The notes under the pieces are model-generated. The model ran no database searches and was not told the origin of the DNA. It was given only the letters and a program-made list of their open reading frames with translations. A program made the position numbers and the translations under genes. DNA of 64,000 nt from Elusimicrobiota bacterium (lineage in GTDB: Bacteria > Elusimicrobiota > Elusimicrobia > F11). Below, piece by piece: positions 12,740 to 59,319 of the stretch (the stretch's first letter is position 1; the number at the start of each line of letters is the position of its first letter). The DNA lies in contig JBGAON010000001.1 of NCBI GenBank assembly GCA_044221725.1, forward strand, positions 335,480 through 399,479, written 5' to 3'.

Positions 12740-14581
12740 ATGGCTACAAAAGATCGCGCCGTTGTCTGGATAGGTGGAGCTGCAGGTGAAGGTATTGCTT
12801 CCACCGGAGATATTTTCTGTAAGACCGCTTCCCGCATGGGTTTGTGGGTATTCGCCTACAATAGTTATCAGTCGGTAATTCGTGGCGGCCACGTCTATTA
12901 CCAGGTTCAAATTGGTGGTGGAGACAAAGTTCTCTCGCAAGGCGACGAACCCGATGTGCTCGTAGCGCTGAACCAAGACACGATTGATCGGCACGCAGGA
13001 AAGGTTCTTGAAGGCGGCGCCATTATCTTTAATAAGGACAAGATCAAAGTTGAAGGCCTCAAAATCCGCAAGAACGTTCAAATTATCGCCATCCCCGTAG
13101 AAGAACTCACCAAAGAATTCGGTCGCAACCCTGTCATGCAAAACACCGTCGACTCCGGCGCGCTCGCGTATGTGTTGGGAATGGATTGGGCCACTTACGA
13201 AGGGGCGATCAAATCCATTTTCGGTTCGAAGAAAAGCGAAATTGCCGACCAGAACATCAAAGTGGCGCTCAAAGGCGCGGAATTCGCGAAAGCCAACTTC
13301 AAACCTCTCGATATTAAACTCAAAGGCGATAGCAAAAAGCGCGCCATTGCTACTGGCAACGCGATGATCGCGTTCGGCGCATTGACCGGCGGTTGCAAAT
13401 TCTACAGCGCGTACCCAATGACGCCAGCGTCGTCGATCATGCATTGGCTCGCGCCGCGCGGTGCCAAGTACGGACTTGTTATGAAACAAATGGAAGACGA
13501 AATTGCTGCAATGGCTTCCACGGTTGGCGCTGGCCATGTCGGCTGCCGTTCAATGACCGGAACTTCGGGCGGCGGGTTCGCTTTGATGACCGAAGCCATT
13601 GGTCTTGCAGCAATGACCGAAACACCGTGTGTTGTTGCGCATGTCATGCGTGGTGGCCCGTCCACCGGTCTTCCGACCAAAACCGAACAAGCCGACCTCT
13701 TCCAAGATATCGGCGCTGGTCAAGGCGATTATCCGAAAGCCATTATCGCTCCCATTACCGTTGATGATTGCTATCACGCGACCATTGAAGCGTTGAACCT
13801 CTCCGAAAAATATCAAACCCCTGTCATTATCGCCTCCGACCTTTTCCTTTCCGAACACGCCGAAACCATTGACGACGGACTTGTTAACCCGAACATCAAA
13901 ATTGAACGCGGCGAAATTGTGACCTCGTGGAAAGCGTCGGACCCGTCGAAAACAGACAAAGATGCCTGGTACGTTGAGAAAAACGCGGACGACTATTTGC
14001 GCTTCAAAGACACGCCGAGCGGTGTTTCGCCGCGCGCGTTGCCGGGCACGGAGAATACGCTCTTCGTTGCGGCGTCGGACGAACATGATGAAGAAGGGAT
14101 CGTTATCTCGGACGTGTTCACGGACGAAAAGATCCGCATCAAAATGATGAACAAGCGCATGCGCAAAATGATCGGTATTGAGAAAGACACGAAAGGCCCG
14201 ATCGTGACCGGCGCAAAGAACGCGGACGTGACGCTGGTGGGTTGGGGCTCCACGTTCCAGATCATCGAAGAAGTGCGCCTCGCGCTCGAGAAGAAAGGCA
14301 AATCCGTTAACCACATCCACTTCCGCACCGTGTGGCCAATTCATGCTGATGAAACCTCGAAGTTGCTCAATGCGGCCAAGAAAACCATCAACATCGAAGT
14401 GAATTTTACGAGCCAGATGGCAAAGATCATTCGCATGGAAACGGGTTATCAAATGCACCATTTCATCAATAAATATGACGGTGAGCCTTACACGTTGGAA
14501 GGGCTCTTGAAAGAAGTTGAGAATTGCATGAGCAGCAAAGCCACCAACAACAAAGTGGCCGAGCTTGCCGGCACAAGGTAA
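12740..14581 (+). CDS. 2-oxoacid:ferredoxin oxidoreductase alpha subunit (fused gamma+alpha domains)
   Basis: N-terminal gamma/catalytic domain (VVWIGGAAGEGIASTGDIFCKTASRMGLWVFAYNSYQSVIRGGHVYYQVQI), then alpha domain (IATGNAMIAFGALTGGCKFYSAYPMTPASSI). 613 aa matches two-subunit OFOR alpha. SD AAGGAG 9 nt upstream. Confidence 0.85.
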   Translation: MATKDRAVVWIGGAAGEGIASTGDIFCKTASRMGLWVFAYNSYQSVIRGGHVYYQVQIGGGDKVLSQGDEPDVLVALNQDTIDRHAGKVLEGGAIIFNKDKIKVEGLKIRKNVQIIAIPVEELTKEFGRNPVMQNTVDSGALAYVLGMDWATYEGAIKSIFGSKKSEIADQNIKVALKGAEFAKANFKPLDIKLKGDSKKRAIATGNAMIAFGALTGGCKFYSAYPMTPASSIMHWLAPRGAKYGLVMKQMEDEIAAMASTVGAGHVGCRSMTGTSGGGFALMTEAIGLAAMTETPCVVAHVMRGGPSTGLPTKTEQADLFQDIGAGQGDYPKAIIAPITVDDCYHATIEALNLSEKYQTPVIIASDLFLSEHAETIDDGLVNPNIKIERGEIVTSWKASDPSKTDKDAWYVEKNADDYLRFKDTPSGVSPRALPGTENTLFVAASDEHDEEGIVISDVFTDEKIRIKMMNKRMRKMIGIEKDTKGPIVTGAKNADVTLVGWGSTFQIIEEVRLALEKKGKSVNHIHFRTVWPIHADETSKLLNAAKKTINIEVNFTSQMAKIIRMETGYQMHHFINKYDGEPYTLEGLLKEVENCMSSKATNNKVAELAGTR

Positions 14582-14592
14582 GGAGAATTTCT

Positions 14593-15480
14593 ATGACCGA
14601 AGCGACAGCAACAGCAACAACGCCTCTCGCGGAATTCCGCTCGAAAGTGGCACCCGACTGGTGCCCAGGTTGCGGCGACTATGGCGTGCTCAGCGCACTG
14701 CAGAAAGCGGCATCCAATTGCAACATTCAGCCGAAAGATTTGATGGTTGTATCCGGGATCGGATGCTCGTCGAACTTGCCGGGATTCATTCGCTCCTACG
14801 GTTTCCATAGTCTTCATGGCCGCGGAGTCGCGGTGGCAACCGGAATGAAACTTGGAAATCCGGATCTCAACGTTGTCGCGACGGGCGGCGACGGTGACGG
14901 TTTCGGCATCGGCGTCGGACACTTCATCCACGCGATGCGCCGCAACGTGAACATCACCTACATCGTGATGAACAACCAAATCTATGGTTTGACCACGGGG
15001 CAAGCATCGCCGACCACGTCGCGCATGCACAAAACGAAATCCACACCAAACGGGAACCTTGAGTTTCCGTTCAACCCAGAAGGCGTCGCGCTTATGGCCG
15101 GTGCCTCGTTCGTGTCGCGCGGTTTCTCGGGTGACGGTGCGGGTCTCGCAAAAATTATGGAACGCGCCATCAAACACAAAGGTTTTTCGCTCGTTGTCGT
15201 GATGAGCCCGTGCGTAACGTACAACAAATTGAACACGTACTCCTGGTTCCGTGACAAGGTGTATAAACTCGAAGATGAAGGTCACGATGTGAACAACTTC
15301 GAATTGGCGCTGAAAAAATCGATGGAATGGGAAAATCGTATTCCGCTCGGCGTGTTTTACGAAACCGACAAGCCGGTCTACGAAGAATCCGAACCGGCGT
15401 ACGAATTCGGCGCACCATCCAAACAAAAACTCGGACTCAAATCCGAAGACTGGAACGTCCTCTACGACAGCTTCCGGTAA
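14593..15480 (+). CDS. 2-oxoacid:ferredoxin oxidoreductase beta subunit (TPP-binding)
   Basis: Start set at ATG 14593, 12 nt after the alpha stop, with SD AAGGAGAA. CPGCGDYG Cys motif and TPP-binding GDGDGFGIG...NNQIYGLTTGQ. Confidence 0.85.
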   Translation: MTEATATATTPLAEFRSKVAPDWCPGCGDYGVLSALQKAASNCNIQPKDLMVVSGIGCSSNLPGFIRSYGFHSLHGRGVAVATGMKLGNPDLNVVATGGDGDGFGIGVGHFIHAMRRNVNITYIVMNNQIYGLTTGQASPTTSRMHKTKSTPNGNLEFPFNPEGVALMAGASFVSRGFSGDGAGLAKIMERAIKHKGFSLVVVMSPCVTYNKLNTYSWFRDKVYKLEDEGHDVNNFELALKKSMEWENRIPLGVFYETDKPVYEESEPAYEFGAPSKQKLGLKSEDWNVLYDSFR

Positions 15481-18300: not shown

Positions 18301-21300
18301 TTGGCTATGAGACCACCCCTTCTCAAGGCCGTTGCCACGCCTCTCTCTGTTGTTGTTCTCGCCACAAATTGCCTGTTCGCGCACTCCGTCGAAGTAAATT
18401 TTTGGACCGAAAGGCGCACCACCTCGCCAACGTCGATTTCTGCACGTGGAGGTGAAATCCCCGCAAGACCTGGCCTCTGGGGGATTTCTCAATTTGGCAC
18501 CGTCCGTAAGATCTTAAAACCAAGAGGCGTTTCGAAAGGAACGGTTCTGCACATCCAAGACATTCATCGAAATCGCGAAGCACAAACGGCTATTTCCAAA
18601 GCCGTTCAACAATTAATTAACAGCGACTCCATTGATCTCATCGCACTGGAGGGCGCTTTCGGCCCCATCGACCTTTCGTTGTTTCGAAAATTTCCCTCTA
18701 GAAATTCGGTGAAGATTGTTGCCGATTATTTGTTCCGCGAAAATCAAATCGCGGGCGCCATTTTTGCTGCCATCACGAGTGACCGCGGAGGGCCCGCGCT
18801 AATCGGTGTCGACGCGCCCTCCCCTTACGCAGCGAACGTGAATGCGTACAAGCAAGCAAAGCCTTTTGTTCGATCGCGAAAAGAAGAAATTGAGCGGTCC
18901 GCGGAGAAAATTGCGGTCGACAAGAAGCGTCTGTTTAACTCGAAACTGTCGACATTCGATGCGGATGTTCAGCGCTTTCGCAGCGGCGAATTATCGTGGG
19001 GCTACTACGTTCGGCATTTGTGCGCGTACTCCGGCGCCATCCCCGACGACGTTCAAGGTTTTTTGTCGGCGCTCAACATGGAATCTCAGATTGATTATGC
19101 GGGCATGGAATCGGAACGGACCGCGCTCTTAAACAAACTCGTCGGTCATCTCACCGACAAGCAAAAGGCGGAATTGCTGAACGCGAGCGCCGCCTATCGG
19201 GCGGGGCAGCTCGGCCATTCTGATTTTTATCTTTATCTAAAACGACTGTCTGTTAAGCGTGGGATTTCGTTGGCAGCGTACCCGGTCTTTAACCGTTACG
19301 TTCGTTACGCACGGCTGGCTGACAGCGTCGATGCCGAAAAGGTTCTCGAAGAAACGACCGCCATGGAAAAAGCGATTTATTCCCGGCTGGCGGTTACCGA
19401 TGCGGAGAAACGGCTCGTTCAAAAATCGCGCGAGCTTTATTTGATCCGCAAACTTGTGGAATTTGCGCTGACGAAAAGGGAGTGGGAGGAACTAAAGCTG
19501 TCGCCCTGGAACGCCTTAATCCAGGGCCCACTTTCTTCCGCGAAAATGACGGATCTGCAGCCTTTCGCAGAATTTTACAAGCAAGCCGAGCTTCGCGATG
19601 AAGCAATGGCCAGCAATTTTTTAAATTGTCTCCGATGTACGAAGCACCCCGTACGAAGTGCCTTTGTCCTGATTACGGGTGGCTTCCACTCCACAGGCAT
19701 TGACCAACGACTTGTTGATGCGGGTTACACGATCGTTGCCTTTGTTCCGAAAATTTCGAAGGTCGAATCCTCGGGTGGCACAAGTTATCTGACGGTATTC
19801 GCCCAAGAAAAAACGCCGCTCGAAAAATTGTTTGCGGGCGAAAAGCTTTTTGTGAGTCCTCCCGTGGTTCCGAAAAATCTTTTTCCCGCAAAGATAATGC
19901 TGGATCAGCATGTGTCTTTGTTGCGAACAAAGTGGGAAGGCAACGACGAGCGAACCGTGACCACGCGGGCCCGCGGCTTTGGTTTGACCACCACCTTCGC
20001 ACGGAACAAAATTGTTTCCTCGAGAATCGTCTTGGCAAATGAGCCTGTGCCGGCCGGCACCGCGACCGGCCATGCGTTTGGAAATGCGGGCCGGTGGTAC
20101 GGTCTCCGCGGCTTCTTGCTGGGGGGCTTTGTGAACGCGTTGTTTGCCTTCTTTGTGATGTATCCGTACGGGGATTTTTCAAACGTGTACGTGCGGGGGG
20201 GAATCGCCGCGGTGGCTCTTTTCGGCGGTGTTTATGGCGTCGTTGGTTTTCGGTCAATCTTTAATACCTACGGGAACGAACTTGTCGGTTACCATCTAAT
20301 GGCGCGCACCCGAAAGATTGCGGTGGAAAAAGCAGCGCGCTTGGGTTTGTCACGACCGGAAAACGTTCTCTATATTCCGCTGCTCAAAACGCATATTTGG
20401 CTCAACCGAAAGTTTGATCGCAGTCGTGGAATTCAGCGTTGGATTGCGAATCCCATGATTCTTTCCCATGAGATATTCCCGTATCACACCTTCGGCATGA
20501 TCGGCATGGTCTTCCTGCCCCTCACATTGTTGGTTCAAGCGATCTGGGTATGGAACAACGAATGGGTCACACATCCGCTCGAGCGGCAGAAACTTCTTGA
20601 TCAAGAAATTCGGCATTTCGTGCGCATGACCGGAATCGCTGACGGAGATGCGAACGCCTTGATTCGCGATCTTCGCAAACGAACCATTGTGGTTCAGAGC
20701 CGAGGGGAAGCGTTTTGGCGAATGTTGGTATCAAACACCATTTTTTTTGTTCCGCTCGTCGGTGCGCTCACGACGGTACTAATTTTTTATCAACAACCGA
20801 TCGAGATGGTGGTGTTCCCGGCTATGTTCGGAGCTCTAATGATTATCGTTTTATCGGCTTCCTCTGCGTTCGGAGAATTTCTTGGTGTTGCATTGCCGTT
20901 TTTGAACCTCATCTTGATTATGGATGAACAGATGCACAGCGATCACCTTCGTGGAGAAGTTATTTTTCACGAGTTGACGCACCATGTTTTCCCCGATTGG
21001 CGTACCGGCCGGGAATCGGTCGCGTATGCGGCTTCCTATATGGAAACGCTTCGGCGTGTGGAGCGGGGATACTCCGAGCAGACCGATACCGAGCTTGAGC
21101 GGATTCGTCGCGATATAAGTTCCGCGCCGCTGGACCAGTTGGTCAAGCGATACAAAAAAAAGGCCATTTTTACGGTCGCCCAAGATTCGCTCCGTGGCGA
21201 TCATTTTGTTGAAGATACGATTGAACCTCGGTTCAGTTATCCCTTTGGAAAGGAACTCGCCTACGTAGCGCTTGAATTGTTAAAGAATGACCCTCACAAA

Positions 21301-26135: not shown

Positions 26136-26228
26136 TAGATTAACTTGGGCCCTGGATTGAGACGTTCCAGGGCGACGACTTGTTTCCGATGACGATCTCT
26201 TGCGGATCGCCCTTTTCTTCCCGAATAG

Positions 26229-33959: not shown

Positions 33960-34432
33960 GTCGGACCGGATTCGGTTTCGATTCGCACCTGTTCTCGTCC
34001 AGCGGTACGTTGGTGCTGGGCGGAATCAAATTTAAAAACATGCCGATCCTCAAAGGGCATTCGGACGGCGATGCTGTTTTGCATGCGCTGATCGATGCGC
34101 TTTTGGGCGCCGCCTCGTTGGGCGACATTGGCGAGATGTTCCCGGATACGTCATCGGCGCTCAAGGGGATTGATAGTGCGTTGCTTTTGAAACGCGCCGT
34201 CGACCGCGTAAAAAAAGCCGGCTGGACGCCGGAACATGTGGACGTCACAATTCTTGCGGACGACCCGCGCCTATCGCCGGTCAAAGAAAAAATGAAGAAA
34301 GGGTTAGCGAAACTACTGGGTATGCATGCGAGCGACGTGAACGTAAAAGCCAAAACTCAAGAAGGGTTAGCGATATTCAAACAGCCCGGCGGAATTGCCG
34401 TTTGGGCCGTCGCCACACTGGGTGGTAGATGA
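33938..34432 (+). CDS. ispF: 2-C-methyl-D-erythritol 2,4-cyclodiphosphate synthase
   Basis: GFGFDSH...HSDGDAVLHALIDALLGAASLGDIGEMFPDT matches the IspF signature. Confidence 0.9.
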   Translation: MSITSKISRTGFGFDSHLFSSSGTLVLGGIKFKNMPILKGHSDGDAVLHALIDALLGAASLGDIGEMFPDTSSALKGIDSALLLKRAVDRVKKAGWTPEHVDVTILADDPRLSPVKEKMKKGLAKLLGMHASDVNVKAKTQEGLAIFKQPGGIAVWAVATLGGR

Positions 34433-35835
34433 GACCGTTGCATTTCCATAACACGTTGTCGGGCAAGAAAGAGGAACTCAAACCGCTCGTCGCCGGCAAA
34501 GTCGGACTTTACGTTTGCGGGATTACGCCGTACGACGAATCCCACATTGGGCACGCGCGCTGTTATGTCGTGTTCGATATATTGAAACGGGTGCTACTGG
34601 CAAACGGTTACCAAGTCAAACACGTTCAGAACTTCACCGATGTCGATGACAAAATTATCAAGCGCGCAAACGAAATGAACGTGCCGGCGGAATCTTATCC
34701 GAAGCCGTTCATGAAAGGTTTTCTGGATCACATGAAAAAGTTGAACGTGCTGCCCGCCGACACCTACCCGCTTGTAACGACGCACATGAACGAAATTGTT
34801 GCTCTCATTGAGAGGCTCATCGCTCGCGGATTCGCCTATGAGATAGGCGGTGACGTGTATTATTCCGTGCGAAAATTTGGAACGCGTTACGTGGAATTGT
34901 CGAAACGAAATCTTGAAGAGATGATCGCCGGTGCGCGTGTGGAAGTGGACGAACGGAAAAACGATCCGCTCGACTTCGCGTTATGGAAGAAATCGAAGGA
35001 GAACGAGCCGGCTTGGCCATCGCCGTGGGGAAACGGGCGGCCCGGTTGGCACATTGAATGTTCGGCGATGGCGATGAAATACCTGGGCGACGAATTTGAC
35101 ATTCATGGCGGCGGAATGGATTTGATTTTTCCACACCACACGAATGAAATCGCCCAGTCGGTGGGCGCCTCCGGCAAAGCGTTTGCAAAGATGTGGGTGC
35201 ACAACGGGTTTGTCACGATCGACAATGAAAAGATGTCGAAGTCGCTCGGGAATTTTTTCACGATTAAAGAGGTGCTTGCCAAGTTTGATCCGATGACGCT
35301 TCGGTATTTTCTGCTTTCGCAGCATTACCGAAGCCCGCTCAATTTTTCGGACCACGCGCTCACCGTGGCCCAAACCACGTGGTTCCAACGAATCATCGGA
35401 GCTTATCGTATTGCAGAGGGCTGGGAGCATCGTCGTTCCCGCGAAGGCGGGAACCTAGACACCCCCGGTGGGGCGACAGAGAAGTTTCACGCCGCACTCG
35501 CTAACGACTTGAACACGCCCGAAGCGCTCGCGGAAATCAATCAATATTGTTCGCTTATTTACGAGCACGAGAAATCACAAGAGCCAATGCCGGAGGCGAA
35601 GTCGGTGTTGGATGCGATGTTCAATACGCTCGGGCTGGTTCCCGCGCAAGAGGAAAAGTGGTCCGATGAAATTCTCGCAATCGTCAAAGATCGGGAGACC
35701 GCGCGTAAAAACAAAGAGTGGAAGCGCTCCGACGAGCTGCGTGATTTGCTGAAGTCAAAAGGCGTGCTCGTTGAAGATTCGTCATCGGGCCAGCGTTTGA
35801 AAAAAATGGGAGACGGCGTTGGCGTGGCGAAATAA
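34429..35835 (+). CDS. cysS: cysteine--tRNA ligase
   Basis: HIGH motif (ESHIGHAR), KMSKS motif present, Zn-binding Cys. Confidence 0.92.
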   Translation: MRPLHFHNTLSGKKEELKPLVAGKVGLYVCGITPYDESHIGHARCYVVFDILKRVLLANGYQVKHVQNFTDVDDKIIKRANEMNVPAESYPKPFMKGFLDHMKKLNVLPADTYPLVTTHMNEIVALIERLIARGFAYEIGGDVYYSVRKFGTRYVELSKRNLEEMIAGARVEVDERKNDPLDFALWKKSKENEPAWPSPWGNGRPGWHIECSAMAMKYLGDEFDIHGGGMDLIFPHHTNEIAQSVGASGKAFAKMWVHNGFVTIDNEKMSKSLGNFFTIKEVLAKFDPMTLRYFLLSQHYRSPLNFSDHALTVAQTTWFQRIIGAYRIAEGWEHRRSREGGNLDTPGGATEKFHAALANDLNTPEALAEINQYCSLIYEHEKSQEPMPEAKSVLDAMFNTLGLVPAQEEKWSDEILAIVKDRETARKNKEWKRSDELRDLLKSKGVLVEDSSSGQRLKKMGDGVGVAK

Positions 35836-49181: not shown

Positions 49182-50171
49182 ATGAGTTGGATTATGGGCA
49201 TGAAACGCAACGGCGTGCATTTCTTGAAATTCCTTTTCCTCGGGCTGATGTTGAACGCGGGGATTTCGTGCACAGCATCCGCTGCTTTTCAAGAAGCTCT
49301 CTGGGGCGCTCGCCCCGCTTCTCTTGTTGGTGCCTACACCGCTCTTGCCGATGACTCAAATTCGCCCGCCTACAACCCCGCCGGAATCAGCATGCTCTCG
49401 CAGAATGAACTCACGTTTATGTACGCCCGGCTTTTCTCGGGTGTTAATTTTTATGCCGGGGAAGACACCTCGCGTTTGGGTCTCGGTTATTTCAGTTTCG
49501 CTCCAAACATTCGGGACAAGAAATACGGCAGTTACGCGATCAGTTGGAGCAATTTCGCCGCCACAAATCTTTACCGTGAAGACACTCTTACTTTTACCGC
49601 CGCCGATTCGTACCAGTTTGAATCGGTAAATTCCAAACCGATTTTATCGTATGGCGCGAATTTGAAATTCTTGCGCCGTTCGTTTTCGACCGATCAACGC
49701 ACGGACCAAGATCCCGTGTTCAAAAACGGGCGGGATTCAACAGGGGTAACACTTGATGCCGGTCTTCAATTGCGCCCGAACTGGAACGTTTTGCCCGGTT
49801 TGCGTTTCGGTTTAACCGGACAAAATTTAACCGAACCCGACATTGGTTTGGCCGCTACCGATCGCGTCCCGCTCCGCGTGGCTTTTGGCGCCGCTTACCA
49901 AGATCCGAACCTTCCGCTTTTTGGCCCCGCTGTGGAAATTTCTCAGCGCTCGGGTCGCACGCTCGTTACGGGCGCCTGGGAAACGTGGGTCTCAAAAAAC
50001 ACGCTCGCGTTTCGCGCCGGTGCGAACGCCGATGAAATCGGCGGCGGCGTGGGATATCAATTTCGTCTGCTAAGCAAAATGATGATGCGTTTCGATTACG
50101 CGATTCTGTGGCCGCTGAACATTGACGGCACCAACGGAAGTCATCGCGTGTCGATCTCAGCATCGTTTTGA
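49182..50171 (+). CDS. outer-membrane beta-barrel protein, FadL/PorV/PorP-SprF-like
   Basis: Signal peptide (alternative start ATG 49200 MKRNGVHFLKFLFLGLMLNAGISCTASA). NPAG motif (SPAYNPAGIS). C-terminal aromatic residue (...RVSISASF) typical of OM beta-barrels. ~300 aa mature. Confidence 0.55.
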   Translation: MSWIMGMKRNGVHFLKFLFLGLMLNAGISCTASAAFQEALWGARPASLVGAYTALADDSNSPAYNPAGISMLSQNELTFMYARLFSGVNFYAGEDTSRLGLGYFSFAPNIRDKKYGSYAISWSNFAATNLYREDTLTFTAADSYQFESVNSKPILSYGANLKFLRRSFSTDQRTDQDPVFKNGRDSTGVTLDAGLQLRPNWNVLPGLRFGLTGQNLTEPDIGLAATDRVPLRVAFGAAYQDPNLPLFGPAVEISQRSGRTLVTGAWETWVSKNTLAFRAGANADEIGGGVGYQFRLLSKMMMRFDYAILWPLNIDGTNGSHRVSISASF

Positions 50172-50231
50172 TCAGCAGATGAATGTTGTTCAGGCTTTGT
50201 AGAAAAGTAATTGGCTCAAAGGAGAGCAAAA

Positions 50232-51065
50232 ATGAAAAAGAAACTAGCAGTACTCGCGTTTGTCGCAACAGCGATCGGCGCATGGACGCCGTCGTGGGCG
50301 TTCCAGTTGGTTCAAATCGAAACAGTAACCGCGACGGCGGTGACAGGAGGAGCGAAGGTTGCGCGGTTTAACTTCGTTATTCGTGACGCTGCGAACGTAA
50401 ACGGCCCGAACCGTCCGAACCTCGGATGGTCCGGTGTTGATCCTCTGTCAACCCAATGGAAAATGTCAGATCAGGTTATCGTGATGGCTTCCACGGTTAC
50501 CGACGCTGCCGGTGGTATTCAGATCCACACCGACAACACGGCGGCCGATGCATCGCCGAAGTTTGTTGATCCGACCCCGGGCAACCTCATTAATCCAGAT
50601 TCGAACGCTGCCGGTTTGTTGCAGGGCACCTCGGGAGTAACGTCAACGGTTTTGCCGATGGCGTGGAGCATTAAGGACTCGTCGCGTACCGTTGAAAGTG
50701 GAACCGTCAATACCGGAATCGGCGCCGCCGATCCAAACAACGGCCCAATCACGGCGGTCTACAACACGAAGTATCAGTGGCTGTTCGTGACCGATAAATT
50801 CAACGTGCAAGGTATCGACTACAGCGGTGATGGGCTCGTAACGCCTGGTCCAAATTCTCCGGACGCCGCTCCGTTCGTGAATGGCGCCAAGTACATCACG
50901 ATGCGCAACTCGACCGGTATTCACTTCGGTCAAGCGGATGGTGAGTTTGCGTCGGTTCCTCAGGGACAAACGAACTATGTTTACTTCGAAGCCAACTTCT
51001 TGGGTTCGCAAGTGCAACAGACGTATCAAACAACGACTCTGCGTCTGGAAGCCTTCATCCAATAA
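50232..51065 (+). CDS. secreted protein sharing a C-terminal module with the 1325-aa surface protein
   Basis: Start at ATG 50232 with SD AAAGGAGAG. Signal peptide cleaved before AFQLVQIET. The region IQIHTDNTAADASPKFVDPTPGNLINPDSNAAGLL...MAWSIKDSS...YVYFEANF aligns to the last ~200 aa of 53165..57142. Confidence 0.6.
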   Translation: MKKKLAVLAFVATAIGAWTPSWAFQLVQIETVTATAVTGGAKVARFNFVIRDAANVNGPNRPNLGWSGVDPLSTQWKMSDQVIVMASTVTDAAGGIQIHTDNTAADASPKFVDPTPGNLINPDSNAAGLLQGTSGVTSTVLPMAWSIKDSSRTVESGTVNTGIGAADPNNGPITAVYNTKYQWLFVTDKFNVQGIDYSGDGLVTPGPNSPDAAPFVNGAKYITMRNSTGIHFGQADGEFASVPQGQTNYVYFEANFLGSQVQQTYQTTTLRLEAFIQ

Positions 51066-51068
51066 CGA

Positions 51069-51884
51069 TTGTTCGGAGTTTCGATCATGATTAAAACGCC
51101 AGAGTGGTGGAACCGAAAGGTTCCGCCACTCGGCGGTTTTTTCACGTTGCTTCTTTTGGCGGGTGCGCCCCCTGCGGCGCGCGCGTTCGAAATTGCGCCG
51201 TCTTACCAGTTGTTAAAGGCGCAGCCCGGGAAATCCGTGGACTCGCAATTAACATTAACGAACACCGACCAGGAAGAAATCAGCGTTGAACCAGAAGCCA
51301 AGGATTGGCAATCGCTCGAGGTGAACCGTGGGATCAAGGTGGCTGATTGGTTGTCTGTGGATAAGAAAATGTTTTTCTTGAAGCCCGGCCAATCGCGAAC
51401 CATTAAGTTCTCGGCGCGTGTGCCAAAAAATGCGCACGGCGAGCTTATGGGAATGCTTTCTTTTGCCACGAAAAAGGAATCGGCTCAATCCATCACGTTC
51501 AAACTGAGCTCAGCGGTTTATGTCGAAGTGGTTGGTACACAAAAGATCGACGCGCACGTGGACGCTATTACGATTCAATTGTCATCAAACACGCAGGTGG
51601 GATTGCTTGTGATCAATCGAGGGAACATCCATGTTCGTCCTCACTCCTACGTTCAGATTCTCAACGAAAAAAAGAGCCCGGTAGGCAACGTGGTCATTGC
51701 GCAGAATGAGCCTGTTTTCCCCGGAATACCAAAGCCAATTTTCGGAACCATTAGAAATTTTCGTTTGCCCGCGGGGACGTACACCGCACAGATTTCGATG
51801 CAAGACACGGACCACAACATGGAATTTCAGCCCGTGACAAAAAAGTTTTCGCTTTCGGAGAAAGGGGAGTTGACCGAAAAATAG
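51069..51884 (+). CDS. periplasmic hypothetical protein, possible PapD-like/Ig-fold chaperone-like
   Basis: N-terminal hydrophobic leader. Mature N-terminus AFEIAPSYQLL. Beta-strand-rich with LTLTNTDQEEISVEP and LKPGQSRTIKF, resembling pilus-chaperone N-domains. Weak. Confidence 0.3.
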   Translation: MFGVSIMIKTPEWWNRKVPPLGGFFTLLLLAGAPPAARAFEIAPSYQLLKAQPGKSVDSQLTLTNTDQEEISVEPEAKDWQSLEVNRGIKVADWLSVDKKMFFLKPGQSRTIKFSARVPKNAHGELMGMLSFATKKESAQSITFKLSSAVYVEVVGTQKIDAHVDAITIQLSSNTQVGLLVINRGNIHVRPHSYVQILNEKKSPVGNVVIAQNEPVFPGIPKPIFGTIRNFRLPAGTYTAQISMQDTDHNMEFQPVTKKFSLSEKGELTEK

Positions 51885-51890
51885 CTTTGT

Positions 51891-53165
51891 ATGAGAGACC
51901 GGAAACGTAAAAATAATTGGAGTGGCGGCTTCGCTCTGGTGCTTGGTTTGGCGCTGGCTGCTTTCTTGCGCCCTGTTTCTGCATTCCAGATTGTGCAGAC
52001 CTCCAATGTTACGTGCCGCGTGGTGATTGGCGGAGTTCCTCCGGGCAAATTGAAGTTCCAGCATAATCCTCTTCAAAAGGTTTCCCCGGTGGACGATATG
52101 ATCATTATCATGGGTCAGGCTGGTTCCGAAGTTTTACCGACCCAGCCCACGTACGAAGAGTCGCTTAAAACGAATTCGGATTTTGGGCCAGCAGAAGATC
52201 GGAAGATCCGCGTCGTTGTTCAATACCGATTTGTTCCCTCGCTCGATAATCAAGACTCCGTGCCGTTCGTAACGTCGAGCAATATCGAGGGTCCGGATCC
52301 TACACCGTTTGCTTTTCAAATTGATCCGGCGTCCGTTCAACCCGGTTTCTTCCAATATCGGTTTGTCGCAACCGGATTGAATTTCGTGAACGGGCAGCTT
52401 GTCCCGATTTCACAAACAACCGGAGAATTGTTTACGGTTGGTGTGCAGGCCAACGCAAGCCAGGTTTTCGGCCCGGCGGGCGGCACGTTTATTCTTGCGA
52501 ACGGAAACCAAGCAGTCGGCCAAACATCGTTGGCAATTCCTTCCGGTGTGTTTCGGCAGCCAACAACGGTTTCAATCGATGAGATTCCCTCGAATAGCCC
52601 CAGTGTTCCTGCTGGACTTAACAATCCAATCAGCGTGTTTCATCTTGATTCCGACGGGCCGGCACGCGGAATTTTCCAGTTATCGCTTGTGTATCCGGAC
52701 TTTGAATATCCGCGAGGTCGCGACGGGGTTGTTGATGGCACGAATATTCCGGTTCAAAACCTTTCAATCCAGTGGTGGGACGGGTTTGTGTGGCGCGGTG
52801 GCGGCGGGACAATCAACACAAAGACAAATACAATCTCGACGCGCATCAGCGCTTTGAGTTTCGTCGCAATAATGGCGGCGCCTGTGATGACGCCGGAGGA
52901 TCGGCGACCGCTGGAACGCGTGATCACACCGAATAGCGACGGCATTAACGATGTGCTCAATTTTGCGTTTGGTGATTTGGCCGAAGATGTAAAAGTGGAG
53001 ATTTTTGATGTCGGCGGTCACCGCGTGCGAACGCTTCATAGTTTGACAAACATGCAATGGGATGGTCGCGATGATGACGGCAAAGTGGTGGAAAGCGGTG
53101 TTTACATTTATCAATACGACGTCAACAGCAAACGCATCAGCGGCGTCGTCGCGGTGGCGAAATAA
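51891..53165 (+). CDS. secreted protein with T9SS type-B (gliding-motility-associated, CHU_C-like) C-terminal sorting domain
   Basis: Signal peptide cleaved before AFQIVQTSN. C-terminus ITPNSDGINDVLNF...VKVEIFDVGGHRVRTL...WDGRDDDGKVVESGVYIYQYDV matches the type-B CTD. Confidence 0.65.
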   Translation: MRDRKRKNNWSGGFALVLGLALAAFLRPVSAFQIVQTSNVTCRVVIGGVPPGKLKFQHNPLQKVSPVDDMIIIMGQAGSEVLPTQPTYEESLKTNSDFGPAEDRKIRVVVQYRFVPSLDNQDSVPFVTSSNIEGPDPTPFAFQIDPASVQPGFFQYRFVATGLNFVNGQLVPISQTTGELFTVGVQANASQVFGPAGGTFILANGNQAVGQTSLAIPSGVFRQPTTVSIDEIPSNSPSVPAGLNNPISVFHLDSDGPARGIFQLSLVYPDFEYPRGRDGVVDGTNIPVQNLSIQWWDGFVWRGGGGTINTKTNTISTRISALSFVAIMAAPVMTPEDRRPLERVITPNSDGINDVLNFAFGDLAEDVKVEIFDVGGHRVRTLHSLTNMQWDGRDDDGKVVESGVYIYQYDVNSKRISGVVAVAK

Positions 53166-56100
53166 TGGAAGCGAATAACTATTGTCGTCATTCCCGCGAA
53201 AGCGGGAATCTAGGTCTCAAGCAATTTTTTGAATTCAGGCTCAAAGCCTGGATTCCCGCTTTCGCGGGAATGACGTTATTGCTTTTGCCCGGACTGGTTC
53301 ATTCCGAAGCGACGAAGGAATATACGCGCGACGCCGGAATTTATAGCGCGAACCCGTTCAGTATCTTCACGTTCTCGTTTAGCTCGATCAACGTTGATTT
53401 TGATTCCACGTCGGACCCGAACCCGCCAGAGGGATTAAAAGTCGCGAGCACAACCGTCGCGACCCAATGGGGAGGATGGGGAATATTCAATACGACCGCG
53501 ATGGGCAACAACGTCGTTACCGATTTGAATTTTTCGGACTATGTGAACGGGCATTTGCGATTCTGGTTAAAAAGCCAAATTGCGCTTGATGTAAAGATCG
53601 AATATCAGCAGGGGTCGAATGCCGTGCAAGTTTCCAGCAGCGTGGCCAGCACAGGCAACGCGTGGAAAGAAATTGTAATTCCATTGCAGTCGGGTGGCTT
53701 TGGTCTAAACAACGGTCAGATGAACCGCATCCGTTCTCCATTTATTGTGGTGGCTCCGCAAACGACCGGCGTGCAAAAGCAATGGTTCATCGATCACGTG
53801 CGCTGGACAAAACCTGTCACGTCCATCGTTATGTATCCGCCGTCGACCACGGTTCAACAAGGTTTCCACCGCTTGTTTACCGCGGAAGGTCGCGATGCCG
53901 CGAACGAACGTGTCATTATTTACCCCACGTTCAGTGTTTCTCCGACGGTCGGAACATTTACTCCGGCTGACCCGACTCCGGTCACAGCGTCACGCTTGAA
54001 CGCGACCGGCGCGAGCGGCGTTGCAAACGCGGTTTTTTCACCGCTATCGGCGTCCTCCGTGGTCACCATTACCGGATCTCACATTAATGACGAGCTTGGG
54101 TTGCTTAGTGAAACAATCCCGTCGTCGTTGATCCTTAATACTGACAGCGAGTTGGATGTGTCCTCGGGCGGCGGCGGGACGGATCCGGTGTTATTGGATG
54201 AATCGAGCAGTGATGTACGGGAGGGCGTGCGCCGTTTTAAAACGACCATCAGCGCGCAGCCGGCGAATGGCTTTAGCGGGTGGTTTATTCAATGGAGTAC
54301 GAACGCCGCGAACACGGTGACACGCGACATGAGCAATTATTACGACGGATCGTTGCGGTTCTGGTTCAAAGGTCCGGCCGCTCTACAAAACGTACTCCAG
54401 ATTTCTGTTCGGTCCGGAAATACCGAAGCGGGCACCGAACTATCAAAAGTGAATCTCAAGAACTACGTGACGTTCGATGACACGTGGCGACCGGTTGTCA
54501 TTCCCATTTCCGATTTCACTGGTGCGCGGCCCAAAGCCGATTTGTCGCGCATGAAAATATTGTTCGGAGCTTTTGCGGTCGGTGCCGTTGGAAGCGTACA
54601 AACGTTCTATATCGATAATCTTCGCTGGGACACAAATATTCCCGGCGCGCTGGCATCGCTCACGGTGTCGCCAGCATCGGTGACGGTTCCGCTTTCAGCG
54701 AAACGCCAATTCGTCGCCAAAGGCTTCGACGCGAACGGCGTGTCCGTTGACATCTTCCCAACATGGACAATCACCGGTGGCATCGGTTCGGTAAACCCAT
54801 CGCAGGGGGCCATCACGCAATTGACCGCCGCCAGCTCCGCGCAATCGGGAACTCTCAAAGCCAGTCAAGGAGCGGTATCAGCGACCGCGTCGGTAAACGT
54901 GGCCGATGTTCAATGGGTGCAGTCGTTCAACGTGTATTCGGACAATGGGTCTGGCGGATTTGTTGGAGTTGCTAAGGGAACGAACAACGGCACCGTGATG
55001 AATTTGAGCGAGCAAAATTTGGGCGCGGGCGTGGCGCCCGAAGGAAAATTTGTGCGCCAATCGAACTACACACTCGTTAACAATCCGAATCTTCAAGACG
55101 CGTTCGCGATTTGGTTCACCAACGCGGACGCGGGCACCGGCTCGCGCTTCATGCATTACTTTGATACGGGCTATCTTTATTTTTGGGTACGCACGACTCA
55201 GGACCTACAAATCTCGATTCGCTCCGCCAACATAACAGCGGGGAACGAGCGTTCGAAATTTCGATTGAGTGAGCTTGGTGTTCCGCTCGACAACAATTGG
55301 CAGAAAGTGGTGATCGCGCTTGCCGATTTCAAGAACCGCGAACCGCTTTTGGATTTTGACCAGATTCAAACGTATTTCGCTATCGGCGCCGTGTCGTCGC
55401 AGATTGGGCCTGTTACGAACCAAACGTTTGACGTCGATGATGTGAAATGGCTCACGAACAATCCGGGCCAGCCCGACGACAACAAGATTTACATTGGTCT
55501 CAAAGAGAAACAGGCCGCGGGGGGGCTTGTGCGGTCGTTCGATACGTTGCTCGATGCGTACACCTACGATCAGGCGCTTGCCGCTATGAATTACACGTAC
55601 CGAAAGGACGTGGCGTTATCCAAAAAAGTTTTTGACGTTTATAAATATGTCCATGATAATTACGGCGGTACCTTCAGCGGTTTTCACGAGGATTACAACA
55701 TCAATTCGGCGGTGGGCGGGTACACGGTGCTGAATAGCAGTCGCGTCGCCGGGCCAAACGCTTGGATTCTTCTCGCGATGATTCATTACCGGAATGTAAC
55801 GGGTTCCACCGCGTACGACACGGTGATTAACGACGTGGCGGCGTGGTTGCGCGGATTGCAGGGGGCTGACGGTGCTGTGCAGTTTGGGCGTGTAAATTCG
55901 ACATTGATCACTCTTAAATCCACCGAACACAATTTCGATGTGGTGGCCGCGTTTCGCGCGTACGCAAAAATGAGTGGCAACAGTGCGTACAACAGTTACG
56001 CGGACGCCGCGCGCAATTGGCTTCAGACACAAATGTACGTTCCCGCCCAGCAACGTTTTAACGTGGGCACGTACGCGAACGGAACCACAAACACGGATCG

Positions 56101-57142
56101 TGCGCTCGACGCTTATTCGTGGGCCCCTCTCGCCCTTTCCTCCTTCACGAACGTGTTGACGACCGCCGAGACCGATTTCAAGAACACAAAGGTGTGTGAT
56201 TTGACGGGACTCAGTGTCACGGGATTTGATTTTTCGGGTCCACCCAACTTTGGCCCCGACTTGGACGCGGTGTGGTTGGAGGGAACAGGCCAAATGGCGC
56301 TTGCCTATTACCTTACCGACAATCTCGCGAAAGGCGATTTTTACCTGCAAGAGCTCGATAAAGCGATCGTGAACACGTCCGCCAACGGCCAGGGCATGGC
56401 GTACGCGACGAACAACGGCACCGCCTACGGTTTTAATATGAATTCGCTGAATCCAGCCATAAGTTCAATGGCGTGGTATCTGTTTGCAAAGCAGAAATTC
56501 AATCCGTTCAAGCCTTATCCGATTTATGAGTTAAAAATCATGGACACGGCGTCCGGGACCGAACGTTCGTCGGTTGGCTTTACGGTTTCGGTTCCCGCGG
56601 CATGGGTGCGAGCGGATCAATACATCAAGCTCGATGTGCAACCGAATTCGGTCGATCCGTGGGGCTTGCAAATTTTGACGGATAACACGCAGCCAACCGT
56701 GGTTCCTCGTTTTGTTGATCCCACGCCGGGAACAACGTCCAATTCGGACTCGAATCCAGCGGGACTCCTTTTGGAATTGACCGGTCAAACAACAACGCCG
56801 TACCAAATCAACATGGCGTGGAGCGTCAAGGATACGAGCGCAACCGCCACCATGCCAATCGCAACCGATCCAAATTCCGGCGCGCCAAACTCCTTTCAGT
56901 GGATTTTTATGAAAGACCGCGCGACTCCAGACATTCCTTCAATGAACACGGTCGCGTTTGCGAACGGGCAAGATGATGTGATTGTTCGAAAAGCCGTGAG
57001 CGGAAGTCATACGTCCCAGGGACCTGCCGGATACACCGCTTCCGTTTCGCCGGACTACTTATTTCTAGAAGCAAATTTTAATTCCGCTGCGGCCCAGGTC
57101 CGCTACTTAGCGCATATCACGTTCGAATTTTTCCTGCAATGA
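53165..57142 (+). CDS. 1325-aa secreted multidomain surface protein (3 CBM-like beta-sandwich modules, 2 Big_2 Ig-like domains, alpha/alpha-toroid-like domain, C-terminal shared module)
   Basis: ATG overlaps the upstream stop (TAATG), but the first 35 codons are the translation of the palindromic element (SRESGN / IPAFAGMT). A more plausible start is ATG 53270. Repeated ...LRFWLKS / LRFWFKG / LYFWVRT modules. Big_2 segments (TVSPASVTVPLSAKRQFVAKGFDANG). Central GPNAWILLAMIHY...TG module. Last ~200 aa paralogous to 50232..51065. Confidence 0.6.
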   Translation: MEANNYCRHSRESGNLGLKQFFEFRLKAWIPAFAGMTLLLLPGLVHSEATKEYTRDAGIYSANPFSIFTFSFSSINVDFDSTSDPNPPEGLKVASTTVATQWGGWGIFNTTAMGNNVVTDLNFSDYVNGHLRFWLKSQIALDVKIEYQQGSNAVQVSSSVASTGNAWKEIVIPLQSGGFGLNNGQMNRIRSPFIVVAPQTTGVQKQWFIDHVRWTKPVTSIVMYPPSTTVQQGFHRLFTAEGRDAANERVIIYPTFSVSPTVGTFTPADPTPVTASRLNATGASGVANAVFSPLSASSVVTITGSHINDELGLLSETIPSSLILNTDSELDVSSGGGGTDPVLLDESSSDVREGVRRFKTTISAQPANGFSGWFIQWSTNAANTVTRDMSNYYDGSLRFWFKGPAALQNVLQISVRSGNTEAGTELSKVNLKNYVTFDDTWRPVVIPISDFTGARPKADLSRMKILFGAFAVGAVGSVQTFYIDNLRWDTNIPGALASLTVSPASVTVPLSAKRQFVAKGFDANGVSVDIFPTWTITGGIGSVNPSQGAITQLTAASSAQSGTLKASQGAVSATASVNVADVQWVQSFNVYSDNGSGGFVGVAKGTNNGTVMNLSEQNLGAGVAPEGKFVRQSNYTLVNNPNLQDAFAIWFTNADAGTGSRFMHYFDTGYLYFWVRTTQDLQISIRSANITAGNERSKFRLSELGVPLDNNWQKVVIALADFKNREPLLDFDQIQTYFAIGAVSSQIGPVTNQTFDVDDVKWLTNNPGQPDDNKIYIGLKEKQAAGGLVRSFDTLLDAYTYDQALAAMNYTYRKDVALSKKVFDVYKYVHDNYGGTFSGFHEDYNINSAVGGYTVLNSSRVAGPNAWILLAMIHYRNVTGSTAYDTVINDVAAWLRGLQGADGAVQFGRVNSTLITLKSTEHNFDVVAAFRAYAKMSGNSAYNSYADAARNWLQTQMYVPAQQRFNVGTYANGTTNTDRALDAYSWAPLALSSFTNVLTTAETDFKNTKVCDLTGLSVTGFDFSGPPNFGPDLDAVWLEGTGQMALAYYLTDNLAKGDFYLQELDKAIVNTSANGQGMAYATNNGTAYGFNMNSLNPAISSMAWYLFAKQKFNPFKPYPIYELKIMDTASGTERSSVGFTVSVPAAWVRADQYIKLDVQPNSVDPWGLQILTDNTQPTVVPRFVDPTPGTTSNSDSNPAGLLLELTGQTTTPYQINMAWSVKDTSATATMPIATDPNSGAPNSFQWIFMKDRATPDIPSMNTVAFANGQDDVIVRKAVSGSHTSQGPAGYTASVSPDYLFLEANFNSAAAQVRYLAHITFEFFLQ
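53187..53274. repeat. MITE-like palindromic element: perfect 24-bp terminal inverted repeats flanking 40 bp
   Basis: GTCATTCCCGCGAAAGCGGGAATC (53187-53210) and its exact reverse complement GATTCCCGCTTTCGCGGGAATGAC (53251-53274). Each arm is itself a hairpin (ATTCCCGC-GAAA-GCGGGAAT). The central 40 bp contains a further hairpin AGGCT-CAA-AGCCT. Confidence 0.75.
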
Positions 57143-59319
57143 TTCTCGATCCGTCGCCGATTTCTGCGTCCGATCGAAAGTTAAAACATCCTTCCGCAGA
57201 AAAGAAATCGGGGCGGCGCGAAAAGGTCGGATTTGCGTTGCTGATCCTGTTGGCGTTTGTCGGGTCTTTCGGCATCTGGAGATGGGAGCCGAAATGGGCC
57301 AAGCCATCCGTCCCGCCCGTTGAAAAGCCGCTGGTACGGCTTCCCGTGCCAGACACCATCGATGAGCGCCACCGCGAACACATTAAAAACGTTTTGTCGG
57401 TGATCGAATCCAACATCAATCCCGAAACCTACCTCGCCTACAGTTTCAGTGGAGACAAAAGACTCGAGTATTGGAGCGTTGTCTACGACAATTGCATTCG
57501 CGCGATCGTTCACTTGCAAACCGGACAGCCGGAGCTCGCCAAGAAAATAATCGACTACTTCATCGATAACACCGCGATCCAAAAAATCGGTTGGGTTCGG
57601 AAGAATCACCGGTTGGTGGCTCGGACGGGGTGGGTCATAAATATTGTCGATGCGTCGGAATCGCGTGCGGGCGGTCGTGGCATCGAACATATTGCGCATA
57701 CCGGCCCCAACGCTTACCTCGGAATTGCAGCGCTCCATATTTTTGAAGTGACGGGGGAGCAAAAATATTTGCGGTTCGCCAAGAAACAGTGGGAATTATT
57801 AAAGGATTTGCAGAACGAAGATCCGCAAGATCCGAATTTCGGCGGAATTCGTATGGGGCCCATGGGCAATCCCGCCAATCCACGCGAGCAGCGCTTGGAT
57901 TTTAAACCATCGAATCCGTCGTTCTATGAGTTTTATAACGGTGAGCATGCGGCGGATTTTAAAGCGTTTTCCGAACTCCTTTCGGTTTACGATCTCGAAA
58001 ATCAAGAACGCTATGAAAAAGCAGTGGATCTCATTGAGACGTGGGATCACCGAATTTACGATGCCGAAAAACATTTGTTTTATATCGGTACCACCGAAAA
58101 GAAATTTTTTGATCCAAACATCGGGCAATGGATAAGCGTCGGGGTAATTCCGATGTATCCACTCGATACAAGCTCGTTAAAGATTTCCGCCTATGGAGTT
58201 GATGGATTGGAACAGTTTGAGAAGAACGCCGCGCAGAAAATTCGCAAAGCGATCGATGACAACTTCAAGGTGACCGTGAGGATCCCCGATGGCAGCGGAG
58301 GTTTCAAGTCCGTTTCCGGTTATGACTTTGTTTGCAATTCGGACCGAGCGCGACTGATTCGCTTCGTTGAAATGGGACACTACGGCGACCGAAAAATAAA
58401 CGAAGGCATCGGACGCGAACCGCTGCTCAGTGACGAATGGTCGAATTGGGTAGCGCTCGCCGATCTTCGACTCACCGCTGACTTTGAAAAGAAAAACGAC
58501 AACCGAAAGGCCACGATGTATTCAAACGCTTACTATGAAAACGCGCTCGTGAGCTCGATGAAAACGTCGATGTCGGTCGATGGGGGGCTTGCATATCCCT
58601 ACGCGCAACCGCTGCCCGATTCGTTAAACAAGCCGGTCGGTTTCGGTTGGAACACACATCACGAGCCGTACGCGATCATTGGCGGTGCCGCGCGAATTCT
58701 GGGCATTTTGCGATTTGATCCGTTTCTCGCGCGTGGCGGGGATCGATCAACGACGGTCAATGTCGAGGTGAAGAAACTGGGCAGGCCCATCGGAGAAATG
58801 CGTGACAAGGCCGTACTTTACACCGAGGCCGAGCTGTATTTGCGCGATGCGTGGCGGGATTTGCGCGTGGCACAAATCAATGGACCGAAAGCGGAGTTGT
58901 ACTGGAGCTGTGCTCGAGCCACGTGTGAGAGGATGCTTCGTGAACACCAAGATTGGGTTGATGTGGCGATGTCGCAGAACAACAGTTTAAGACTCTCGCG
59001 GCAGCCATTTCCTCTCACGGGGGTTGCGAATTTGACGGAACGAGATTTGGAGCCGGTTTATCGAAAATATTGGGCGCTTTATCATATCGGCACCGCGGAA
59101 TTTATTTTGGTCGTTGCCAATGCGGGGCTGCGCGATATTTACCGCGAGCGCGGCGACGTTGGGCGTGCCGACGCATTGAATCTAAAAGCCATTGAAGCGG
59201 CAAAACGAATTAAAAAAGATTTTTGTTTTGCGCAGTCTTACGACGAGGGCGGTTGGTTATGGCAACCCGCGCAAGCCATTAACGAATACGTTGATCTCGC
59301 GGGGCCGATAAATCACTAA
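57139..59319 (+). CDS. membrane-anchored protein with alpha/alpha-toroid-like module
   Basis: ATGA overlap with the upstream stop. Single N-terminal TM (VGFALLILLAFVGSFGIW). Module GPNAYLGIAALHIFEVTGEQKYLRFAKKQWELL is paralogous to the central domain of 53165..57142. Confidence 0.5.
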   Translation: MILDPSPISASDRKLKHPSAEKKSGRREKVGFALLILLAFVGSFGIWRWEPKWAKPSVPPVEKPLVRLPVPDTIDERHREHIKNVLSVIESNINPETYLAYSFSGDKRLEYWSVVYDNCIRAIVHLQTGQPELAKKIIDYFIDNTAIQKIGWVRKNHRLVARTGWVINIVDASESRAGGRGIEHIAHTGPNAYLGIAALHIFEVTGEQKYLRFAKKQWELLKDLQNEDPQDPNFGGIRMGPMGNPANPREQRLDFKPSNPSFYEFYNGEHAADFKAFSELLSVYDLENQERYEKAVDLIETWDHRIYDAEKHLFYIGTTEKKFFDPNIGQWISVGVIPMYPLDTSSLKISAYGVDGLEQFEKNAAQKIRKAIDDNFKVTVRIPDGSGGFKSVSGYDFVCNSDRARLIRFVEMGHYGDRKINEGIGREPLLSDEWSNWVALADLRLTADFEKKNDNRKATMYSNAYYENALVSSMKTSMSVDGGLAYPYAQPLPDSLNKPVGFGWNTHHEPYAIIGGAARILGILRFDPFLARGGDRSTTVNVEVKKLGRPIGEMRDKAVLYTEAELYLRDAWRDLRVAQINGPKAELYWSCARATCERMLREHQDWVDVAMSQNNSLRLSRQPFPLTGVANLTERDLEPVYRKYWALYHIGTAEFILVVANAGLRDIYRERGDVGRADALNLKAIEAAKRIKKDFCFAQSYDEGGWLWQPAQAINEYVDLAGPINH

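Follow-up and report, generated by a model that had tools for sequence, protein, structure and literature searches.

How does a palindromic repeat come to lie across the first codons of a large gene, and is any part of it translated? The question is raised by a stretch of 64,000 nucleotides from an Elusimicrobiota bacterium (assembly GCA_044221725.1, contig JBGAON010000001.1, positions 335,480 to 399,479 of the forward strand), referred to here as the window. The element concerned occupies window positions 53186-53275. It starts 20 nt past the stop codon of a gene whose product carries a CHU_C domain, and it lies inside the open reading frame (ORF) of the next gene, which encodes a 1325-aa protein. 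An earlier note, made from the sequence of the window alone, had likened the element to a MITE, or miniature inverted-repeat transposable element, and had taken its codons for an artefact of the annotation. The explanation favoured here, which is given a probability of roughly 0.7 as a whole, is that the element is a head-to-head dimer of repetitive extragenic palindromic sequences (REPs) of the CGTC-1 type, that is, a REP doublet forming a hairpin (REPIN), and that there is nothing unusual about it within a repeat family that is very widespread.

A head-to-head repeat dimer and its spread

The arms of the palindrome had been noted as exact reverse complements, and this is the case: GTCATTCCCGCGAAAGCGGGAATC at 53187-53210 is mirrored, 40 nt further on, by its reverse complement (53251-53274). 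A repeat finder lengthens each arm to 29 nt (53186-53214 on the left, 53247-53275 on the right); the arms are then 97% complementary and separated by 32 nt. Each arm is also, as described earlier, an internal hairpin, ATTCCCGC-GAAA-GCGGGAAT, with an 8-bp stem and a 4-nt loop. The left REP unit (53186-53214, plus strand) is made up of CGTC (53186-89), ATTCCCGC (53190-97), GAAA (53198-53201), GCGGGAAT (53202-09) and the tail CTAGG. The right unit (53247-53275, minus strand) reads CGTC-ATTCCCGC-GAAA-GCGGGAAT-CCAGG; on the plus strand it codes for WIPAFAGMT and includes an ATG at 53270-53272. With the spacer that separates the 29-nt arms (53215-53246), the two units form a complete dimer of 90 nt, or 30 codons, in which the CGTC tags point outwards and the tails (CTAGG/CCTGG) inwards. 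Single arms fold at about -13.5 kcal/mol each (left unit -13.6 kcal/mol, z = -4.1). The hairpin formerly ascribed to the spacer itself did not hold up, the fold of the spacer alone being not significant (z = -1.4); its sequence is unmatched elsewhere in the collections searched.

The palindrome is real and non-random. With up to three mismatches allowed, the 20-mer ATTCCCGCGAAAGCGGGAAT occurs three times in the window, against an expectation of 0.00 from 100 shuffles, and folding gives z = -8.8 for RNA (53160-53300, -68.6 kcal/mol) and z = -10.7 for the element as DNA; these values exclude chance as the source of the repeat. An identical element is present in an independent assembly of a sister sample (contig L252, SRR28480386), which excludes an artefact of assembly.

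In the classification of Di Nocera, De Gregorio and Rocco (2013; PMC3733652), REPs of the CGTC-1 type have an unpaired CGTC tag, an 8-bp stem starting with AT, a 4-nt loop and a CCA-type tail, and they are found mainly as head-to-head dimers with spacers of 20-100 nt. The window element follows this description closely. Its tag, for which CGTC, TGTC or CCTC is admitted, is CGTC at 53186-89 and appears as GACG (53272-75) on the other arm; A and T occupy the first two positions of the stem in both arms, and both loops are 4 nt long. The right arm ends in CCA(GG) and the left in CTA(GG), a single mismatch. The spacer measures 32 nt between the 29-nt arms and 42 nt between the 20-mers, and the two inverted REPs are able to form one long hairpin, as is characteristic of a REPIN. 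The earlier note had assigned the element to the small dispersed repeats of other bacteria on the strength of its ATTCCC-N8-GGGAAT core, and rightly so, the motif being that of the Neisseria dRS3 repeat, which is itself classed as a CGTC-1 REP; Rickettsia RPE-6 is another member of the same type, and RPE-4 belongs to CGTC-4 (PMC3733652). The likeness extends to sequence, as the left 32 nt of the element are identical to an N. gonorrhoeae unit in a region, containing CGTCATTCCCGCGAAAGCGGGAATCTAGGTCT...CCTGGATTCCCACTTTCGTGGGAATGACG, that is quoted in PMC7593972.

The distribution of such units was assessed by a genome scan for dimers with exact arms and a spacer of 20-50 nt, a definition that excludes the usual Neisseria units of 55-61 nt. 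The counts that follow hold among the matches listed, which do not include the window's own genome. At least 120 loci were recovered (L129-L248), which by their record titles come from at least 14 bacterial phyla, Elusimicrobia included. The hosts listed are Alpha-, Beta-, Gamma- and Zetaproteobacteria, Magnetococcales, Desulfobulbaceae, Acidobacteriota, Dehalococcoidia, Brocadiia, Gemmatimonadota, Binatia, Hydrogenedentota, Omnitrophota, Elusimicrobia, Spirochaetales, Prevotellaceae, members of the candidate phyla radiation (Falkowbacteria, Saccharibacteria) and Candidatus Hatepunaea of the phylum Electryoneota; matches were also listed from a viral collection. The listed dimers share the 20-mer arms, an NGTC tag and a CCAG tail, and their spacers are lineage-specific. 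CTA tails like that of the window's left arm occur too among 125 exact-arm dimers. Among 122 such dimers, pairing is seen between the GTC/GAC tags in 98% and at the fourth outer base in 83%. By a crude ORF call, 79 of 105 are intergenic (54 between co-directional, 17 between convergent and 8 between divergent genes); many lie 1-60 nt past a stop codon, and 11 of the 105 fall within the first 60 codons of an ORF. The place of the window copy, just past a stop codon and between co-directional genes, is typical of REPs. The repeat family is thus a known one, for which Elusimicrobiota is a newly listed host phylum, and the case extends CGTC-type REPs to this and many other phyla past the five reported in 2013.

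Copying, target sites and the question of a MITE

In the classical sense, a MITE is a deletion derivative of a DDE insertion sequence (IS), bounded by terminal inverted repeats and a target-site duplication. The window element does have perfect inverted termini of 24-29 nt, and TATTG is found on both flanks (53180-84 and 53277-81), in each case 1 nt off the arm. However, no target-site duplication was seen at any offset among 122 listed exact-arm dimers from other genomes, which argues against a DDE-type MITE and is consistent with HUH/Y1 chemistry. Each supposed terminal repeat is, moreover, itself a hairpin that is also found singly, a trait of REPs rather than of MITEs, and no parent IS is known (PMC3733652). 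As the family is without flank repeats, the TATTG pair in the window is best read as chance; it was rejected as a target duplication on this ground and because removal of the resulting 97-nt insertion breaks the reading frame. The name MITE was therefore only loosely right. The element is properly classed as a REP dimer, or REPIN, and descent from a DDE element is highly improbable.

The Neisseria members of the family have been tied to a REP-associated tyrosine transposase (RAYT), an enzyme of the Y1/HUH and not of the DDE type (bioRxiv 10.1101/2021.07.10.451892). By analogy, the window element would most likely be a non-autonomous element copied as a single-stranded hairpin by a single-copy RAYT, a mode of copying that should leave the target undoubled. 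The same spacer recurs at different loci within single genomes (Hatepunaea, Rhodocyclales, Dyella and Terriglobia, among the matches listed), which indicates that the dimer is copied as a unit. On a more speculative reading, of low probability, the occurrence of an identical 20-mer with the same tag and tail in at least 14 phyla is a poor fit to strictly vertical inheritance of REPIN and RAYT; it would imply frequent horizontal spread or a very widely conserved hairpin-recognising protein.

Two negative results weigh against this account of copying. The window yielded no RAYT gene, either in Pfam searches of 17 ORFs or by tblastn with one RAYT-like query, and a scan of JGI metagenomes with a 22-mer from the spacer found no second copy with the window's spacer, the sole match being an unrelated A+T-rich coding sequence. 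Across about 250 loci and the window, a motif pattern and tblastn together gave one RAYT-like ORF, that is, no enrichment. This ORF (L237, 7238-7918; motifs LMTNHVHLL and YIELNPVRA; NF047646 72.8 bits, cut-off 80) belongs to a Sulfuricella metagenome-assembled genome (MAG) and lies 3 kb from an exact CGTC-1 dimer, with no REPs flanking it. Outside Neisseria, CGTC REPs are not known to have a demonstrated cognate transposase.

The sequences just outside the arms have a symmetry of their own. In the window the outer flanks AAGCGAATAAC and GTTATTGCTT are complementary (53169-53179 against 53276-53285), and at least 7 of 10 flank bases are complementary in 13% of listed dimers, compared with 1.3% of controls. 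A palindromic target was rejected as a trait of the family, complementary flanks being found in a minority; either the unit extends past the REP pair in some cases, or some units are sited in palindromic targets.

A different role has been considered, in which the element serves as a site of recombination or integration. In Neisseria, dRS3 is a target of filamentous prophages and of IS110-family recombinases. The window sequence is identical to units of the dRS3 type, and in Neisseria, as in other genera, REPs figure among the recorded targets of IS (PMC3733652). The site in the window holds no insertion, however, and recombinase and prophage genes are absent from the neighbours scanned. Service as an integration site would in any case be a side-effect of the copy and not the reason for its existence, and it is regarded as improbable here.

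Probable translation across the repeat

The two genes that meet at the element abut. The upstream gene (51891-53165, plus strand) encodes a protein of 424 aa whose C-terminal domain is the CHU_C domain of type IX secretion (PF13585, E = 5.5e-11). The downstream gene (53165-57142, plus strand) encodes the 1325-aa secreted protein, which has a CBM30-like domain and is found, in a conserved gene neighbourhood, in Elusimicrobiota MAGs. Their junction is TAATG (53163-53167), in which the TAA of the CHU_C gene overlaps the ATG at 53165, with GGTGG 7 nt upstream. A copy that landed at a usual REP site, about 20 nt past the stop codon in a co-directional gene pair, would thus already have been within the signal-peptide codons of the next gene. 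It would have survived because it amounts to exactly 30 codons in the sole stop-free frame: on the plus strand, the 90 nt of the dimer are open only in the frame of the ORF, and the element is retained in that frame.

The earlier note held that the first ~35 codons were almost certainly not protein. A comparison of the N-termini of 20 homologues, combined with counts of charges and hydrophobic runs, points in the opposite direction. The N-terminus of most homologues is a classical signal peptide, with its end immediately ahead of EATKE. At three orthologous junctions without an element (L125, L127 and L128), the start lies 0-3 nt past the upstream stop and the presequence is 20 residues long; ATG 53165 matches this start position, and the element follows it in frame. 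(The database proteins for two of these loci, P0014 for L127 and P0011 for L128, begin too late, at internal ATGs, with the site at 5968 in both loci; the DNA of each encodes a full 20-residue signal peptide from 2-3 nt past the upstream stop.) The presequence from 53165 has five lysine or arginine (K/R) residues and an uncharged run of 20 residues, AWIPAFAGMTLLLLPGLVHS.

Two further orthologous junctions are occupied. L122 has an 85-nt heterodimer 23 nt past the stop, in frame behind the n-region MTKRKAIK, and L123 an element of the GTCATTCTGAGCG type 28 nt past the stop, in frame behind MQKTKY, with a Shine-Dalgarno-like AGAGGAG upstream. Since the arms are intact, the subtypes differ and the proteins are only 45-55% identical, the three occupied loci look like independent insertions that were filtered for an open frame. 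At the matching place in orthologue P0004 (L126, 5915-5975), MNQNKNNLDFRQRYLRMT precedes the hydrophobic core and ends in ...GAGGATGAC like a decayed REP arm; the annotated start of P0004 (MRSSIYA) is too far downstream.

These comparisons make it moderately probable that translation begins at ATG 53165 and continues across the element, the codons of which would then belong to a long signal peptide that is cleaved off. The alternative is that the element is extragenic, in an intergenic spacer of 105 nt, that the extension to 53165 is an artefact of gene calling, and that translation begins, as the earlier note supposed, at the ATG which the right arm supplies at 53270 (GGGAATGAC). REP dimers are mostly intergenic, and their overlaps with N-termini are often mis-annotations (PMC3733652); the 11 of 105 listed dimers in the first 60 codons agree with this. 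In all three occupied orthologues the element ends in ...MT and is followed by a hydrophobic run, so that the arm's ATG is always in frame, and in the window MEANNYC, the stretch ahead of the element, contains no K/R. Yet ATG 53270 is buried in the 29-bp stem and lacks a spaced Shine-Dalgarno sequence, GGGA directly abutting the ATG. The presequence that it would give, MTLLLLPGLVHS, has 12 residues and no charge, as against 20-31 residues, 2-6 of them K/R, in orthologues that lack an element, and L122 and L123 retain genuine-looking starts and n-regions, in frame, upstream of their elements. A start at ATG 53270 is accordingly held to be possible though doubtful. One further downstream, which had also been proposed, is incompatible with secretion because the conserved mature end, EATKEY, begins at 53306.

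Three considerations tell against translation from ATG 53165. In-frame retention at three loci reaches only about p = 0.01-0.04 by estimate; MEANNYC is without positive charge where orthologues have MKK, so that ATG 53165 could be fortuitous; and an open, start-bearing extension would arise by chance with a prior of ~8%, on a rough estimate.

If translation does begin at ATG 53165, read-through of the element would yield a presequence of 47 residues (53165-53305), consisting of MEANNYC, the 30 REP codons and LLLLPGLVHS, in which the arms and spacer provide the K/R charges and WIPAFAGMT opens the hydrophobic core. Cleavage is predicted before EATKEY and would leave the mature protein unchanged. 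In the transcript, the 29-bp stem, which begins 21 nt after AUG 53165 and accounts for the fold of -68.6 kcal/mol, would mask AUG 53270, in which case expression of the large gene should depend on ribosomes that come from, or initiate beside, the upstream cistron. The stem could also act as a barrier to 3'-exonucleases or as an RNase III site, and so set the ratio of the two products.

A stem of this kind might instead have intrinsic termination or attenuation as its main function, so that expression of the large gene is uncoupled from that of the CHU_C gene, a role that is compatible with the element being a REPIN. The hairpin is very stable and is followed by TTATTGCTTTTG, with five T in the first 8 nt, and an effect of REPs on transcripts, exerted at the 3' ends of genes, has been proposed (PMC3733652). 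A scan for the terminator consensus did not call the element, the loop rule of that scan being one that does not fit it, and no promoter-like site was found after the element in the scan. The proposed signal peptide of the downstream gene extends across the element, and seven loci preserve the two genes as a unit; complete termination would silence the conserved 1325-aa gene, which counts against a terminator. This function is considered unlikely.

Some practical points follow for annotation. The repeat should not serve to trim the 1325-aa ORF, because a conserved secreted protein would thereby lose the one signal peptide that is plausible for it. The peptides RHSRESGN, VIPAKAGI, SFPRKRES, DSRFRGND and IPAFAGMT are readings from the six frames of one repeat arm, and where they appear in annotation they flag a REP and not a protein family. 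With three occupied sites, apparently independent, set against three empty ones, the locus offers a natural example of a cleaved signal peptide that tolerates insertion of a palindromic repeat. Two wider points, both minor, are that signal-peptide codons have captured the repeat in frame more than once and that the repeat is identical in many phyla. A bolder proposal, of low probability, has two separate parts: REP dimers may be recurrently recruited as codons for Sec signal peptides, and horizontal spread or a very widely conserved hairpin-recognising protein would lie behind the cross-phylum 20-mer. The first part draws on the hydrophobic nature of WIPAFAGMT with its in-frame ATG, and on the position of different dimers, in three orthologues, at the boundary between n-region and h-region.

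Neighbouring repeats and related systems

The gene order around the element, namely a UPF0164-like gene, two genes for proteins of ~270 aa, the CHU_C gene and the gene for the giant protein, is kept in seven Elusimicrobiota loci. Homologues of the 1325-aa protein, like those of the window's cysteinyl-tRNA synthetase (CysRS), come from Elusimicrobiota MAGs; proteins identical to those of the window (P0001, P0023) are encoded on an NCBI contig of 870,953 bp. The cluster at 49182-59319, with its counterparts in L122-L128, comprises a UPF0164-like outer-membrane protein, two ~270-aa proteins without a family match, and the CHU_C and ~1300-aa CBM30-like members; a GGDEF gene and a gene for a solute-binding protein are often found upstream of it.

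The earlier note had seen only one copy of the element in the window. The dimer is indeed single, but a variant singleton and a second CGTC-tagged family are also present. The singleton, a variant CGTC-1 REP (cgtcGTTCCCGCgaagGCGGGAACcta, 35431-35459, plus strand), lies inside cysS (34429-35835), where it gives the peptide RRSREGGNL; this falls in the hypervariable linker that precedes the CysRS DALR domain. The window CysRS is ~4 residues longer in this linker than its closest orthologue; with so few extra residues in a hypervariable linker no clear empty site can be defined, and the singleton was rejected as a clean insertion. Members of the second family have the form GCCCTGGA-N9-TCCAGGGC, preceded by cgtc or tgtc and followed by a cca tail. 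One copy (19499-19532, plus strand) is inside a 1925-aa ORF and gives the peptide LSPWNALIQGPL; the other (26144-26177, minus strand) is in the spacer between rplI (L9) and dnaB, 51 nt past the L9 stop. A search of viral contigs for this second hairpin gave 0 matches.

Together, ~71 kb of this genome contain one dimer, one variant singleton and two hairpins of the second family, the 7.2 kb past the right end of the window (L250) containing no more REPs. Two independent contigs from Logan, an assembly made with k = 31, have breaks at the right arm, with 53275 as the last position of L252 and 53246 as the first of L250. Their overlap of 30 nt looks like that of k-1 at a de Bruijn branch, and the right arm is thus probably present in more than one context in the samples. 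For further contigs from this organism the ends are at tRNA genes (window ~9825 and ~36726). In the related contig L122 (which carries P0003; GCA_973584095.1), two additional head-to-head CGTC dimers are found at 14257-14320 and 14614-14678, in the gene downstream of the giant ORF, with stems that differ by compensatory changes (ATCCCGGC, GCTCCGGC). With three dimers in 15 kb, the L122 lineage is REP-rich.

Among known systems, the only candidate from RNA families falls below threshold. At gathering thresholds Rfam reports no family at the element site, and the best sub-threshold match is RF02625 WsnRNA46 (window 53168-53294; 45.4 bits, E = 1e-8, threshold 65.3). The model is itself a repeat dimer of the form GTCAT...CCAG / CTGG...ATGAC, and its alignment with the window element runs from one end to the other; both stem and loop are longer in the Wolbachia unit. 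RF02625, named for a Wolbachia small RNA, was apparently modelled on a REP dimer of the same superfamily, and its matches elsewhere may just mark REP dimers.

With the REPIN-RAYT systems of Pseudomonas and Enterobacteria (which include bacterial interspersed mosaic elements, or BIMEs), the window element shares an inverted REP pair that forms one long hairpin and is copied as a unit, the absence of target duplication and the usual location at the 3' ends of genes. Those REPs carry GTAG tags, whereas the tag here is CGTC. The Rickettsia palindromic elements are likewise in-frame palindromic repeats inside coding genes whose orthologues are without them. The window element behaves in the same way, being a 90-nt insertion with a single open frame and having empty orthologous sites in L125, L127 and L128; it differs in that the Rickettsia elements insert in the mature protein, while this one would lie in a signal peptide that is predicted to be cleaved.

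Closely related too are the dRS3 repeats and their dimers in Neisseria, which have been treated as REPINs by Bertels and Rainey, with a master sequence ATTCCCGCGCAGGCGGGAATC in 241 copies, and which are linked to a Group 2 RAYT transposase, NMAA_0235 (bioRxiv 10.1101/2021.07.10.451892). They have in common with the window element the ATTCCC-N8-GGGAAT core, the 32-nt identity of CGTCATTCCCGCGAAAGCGGGAATCTAGGTCT to a gonococcal unit, and the dimer layout with outward tags. Their spacers measure 55-61 nt, against 42 nt here between the 20-mers, and they are often arrayed as Neisseria intergenic mosaic elements (NIMEs), while the window element is solitary. An array of the latter kind was rejected for this locus, where there is a single unit with no neighbouring copies within 17 kb.

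The CGTC-1 family as a whole is also among the closest systems. The Elusimicrobiota host is not in the five phyla of PMC3733652, and the left tail reads CTA in place of CCA. In tag, stem, loop, type of tail and dimer layout, in its position after a stop codon between co-directional ORFs, and in the occasional location of such units within the 5' ends of ORFs, the window element and the family agree.

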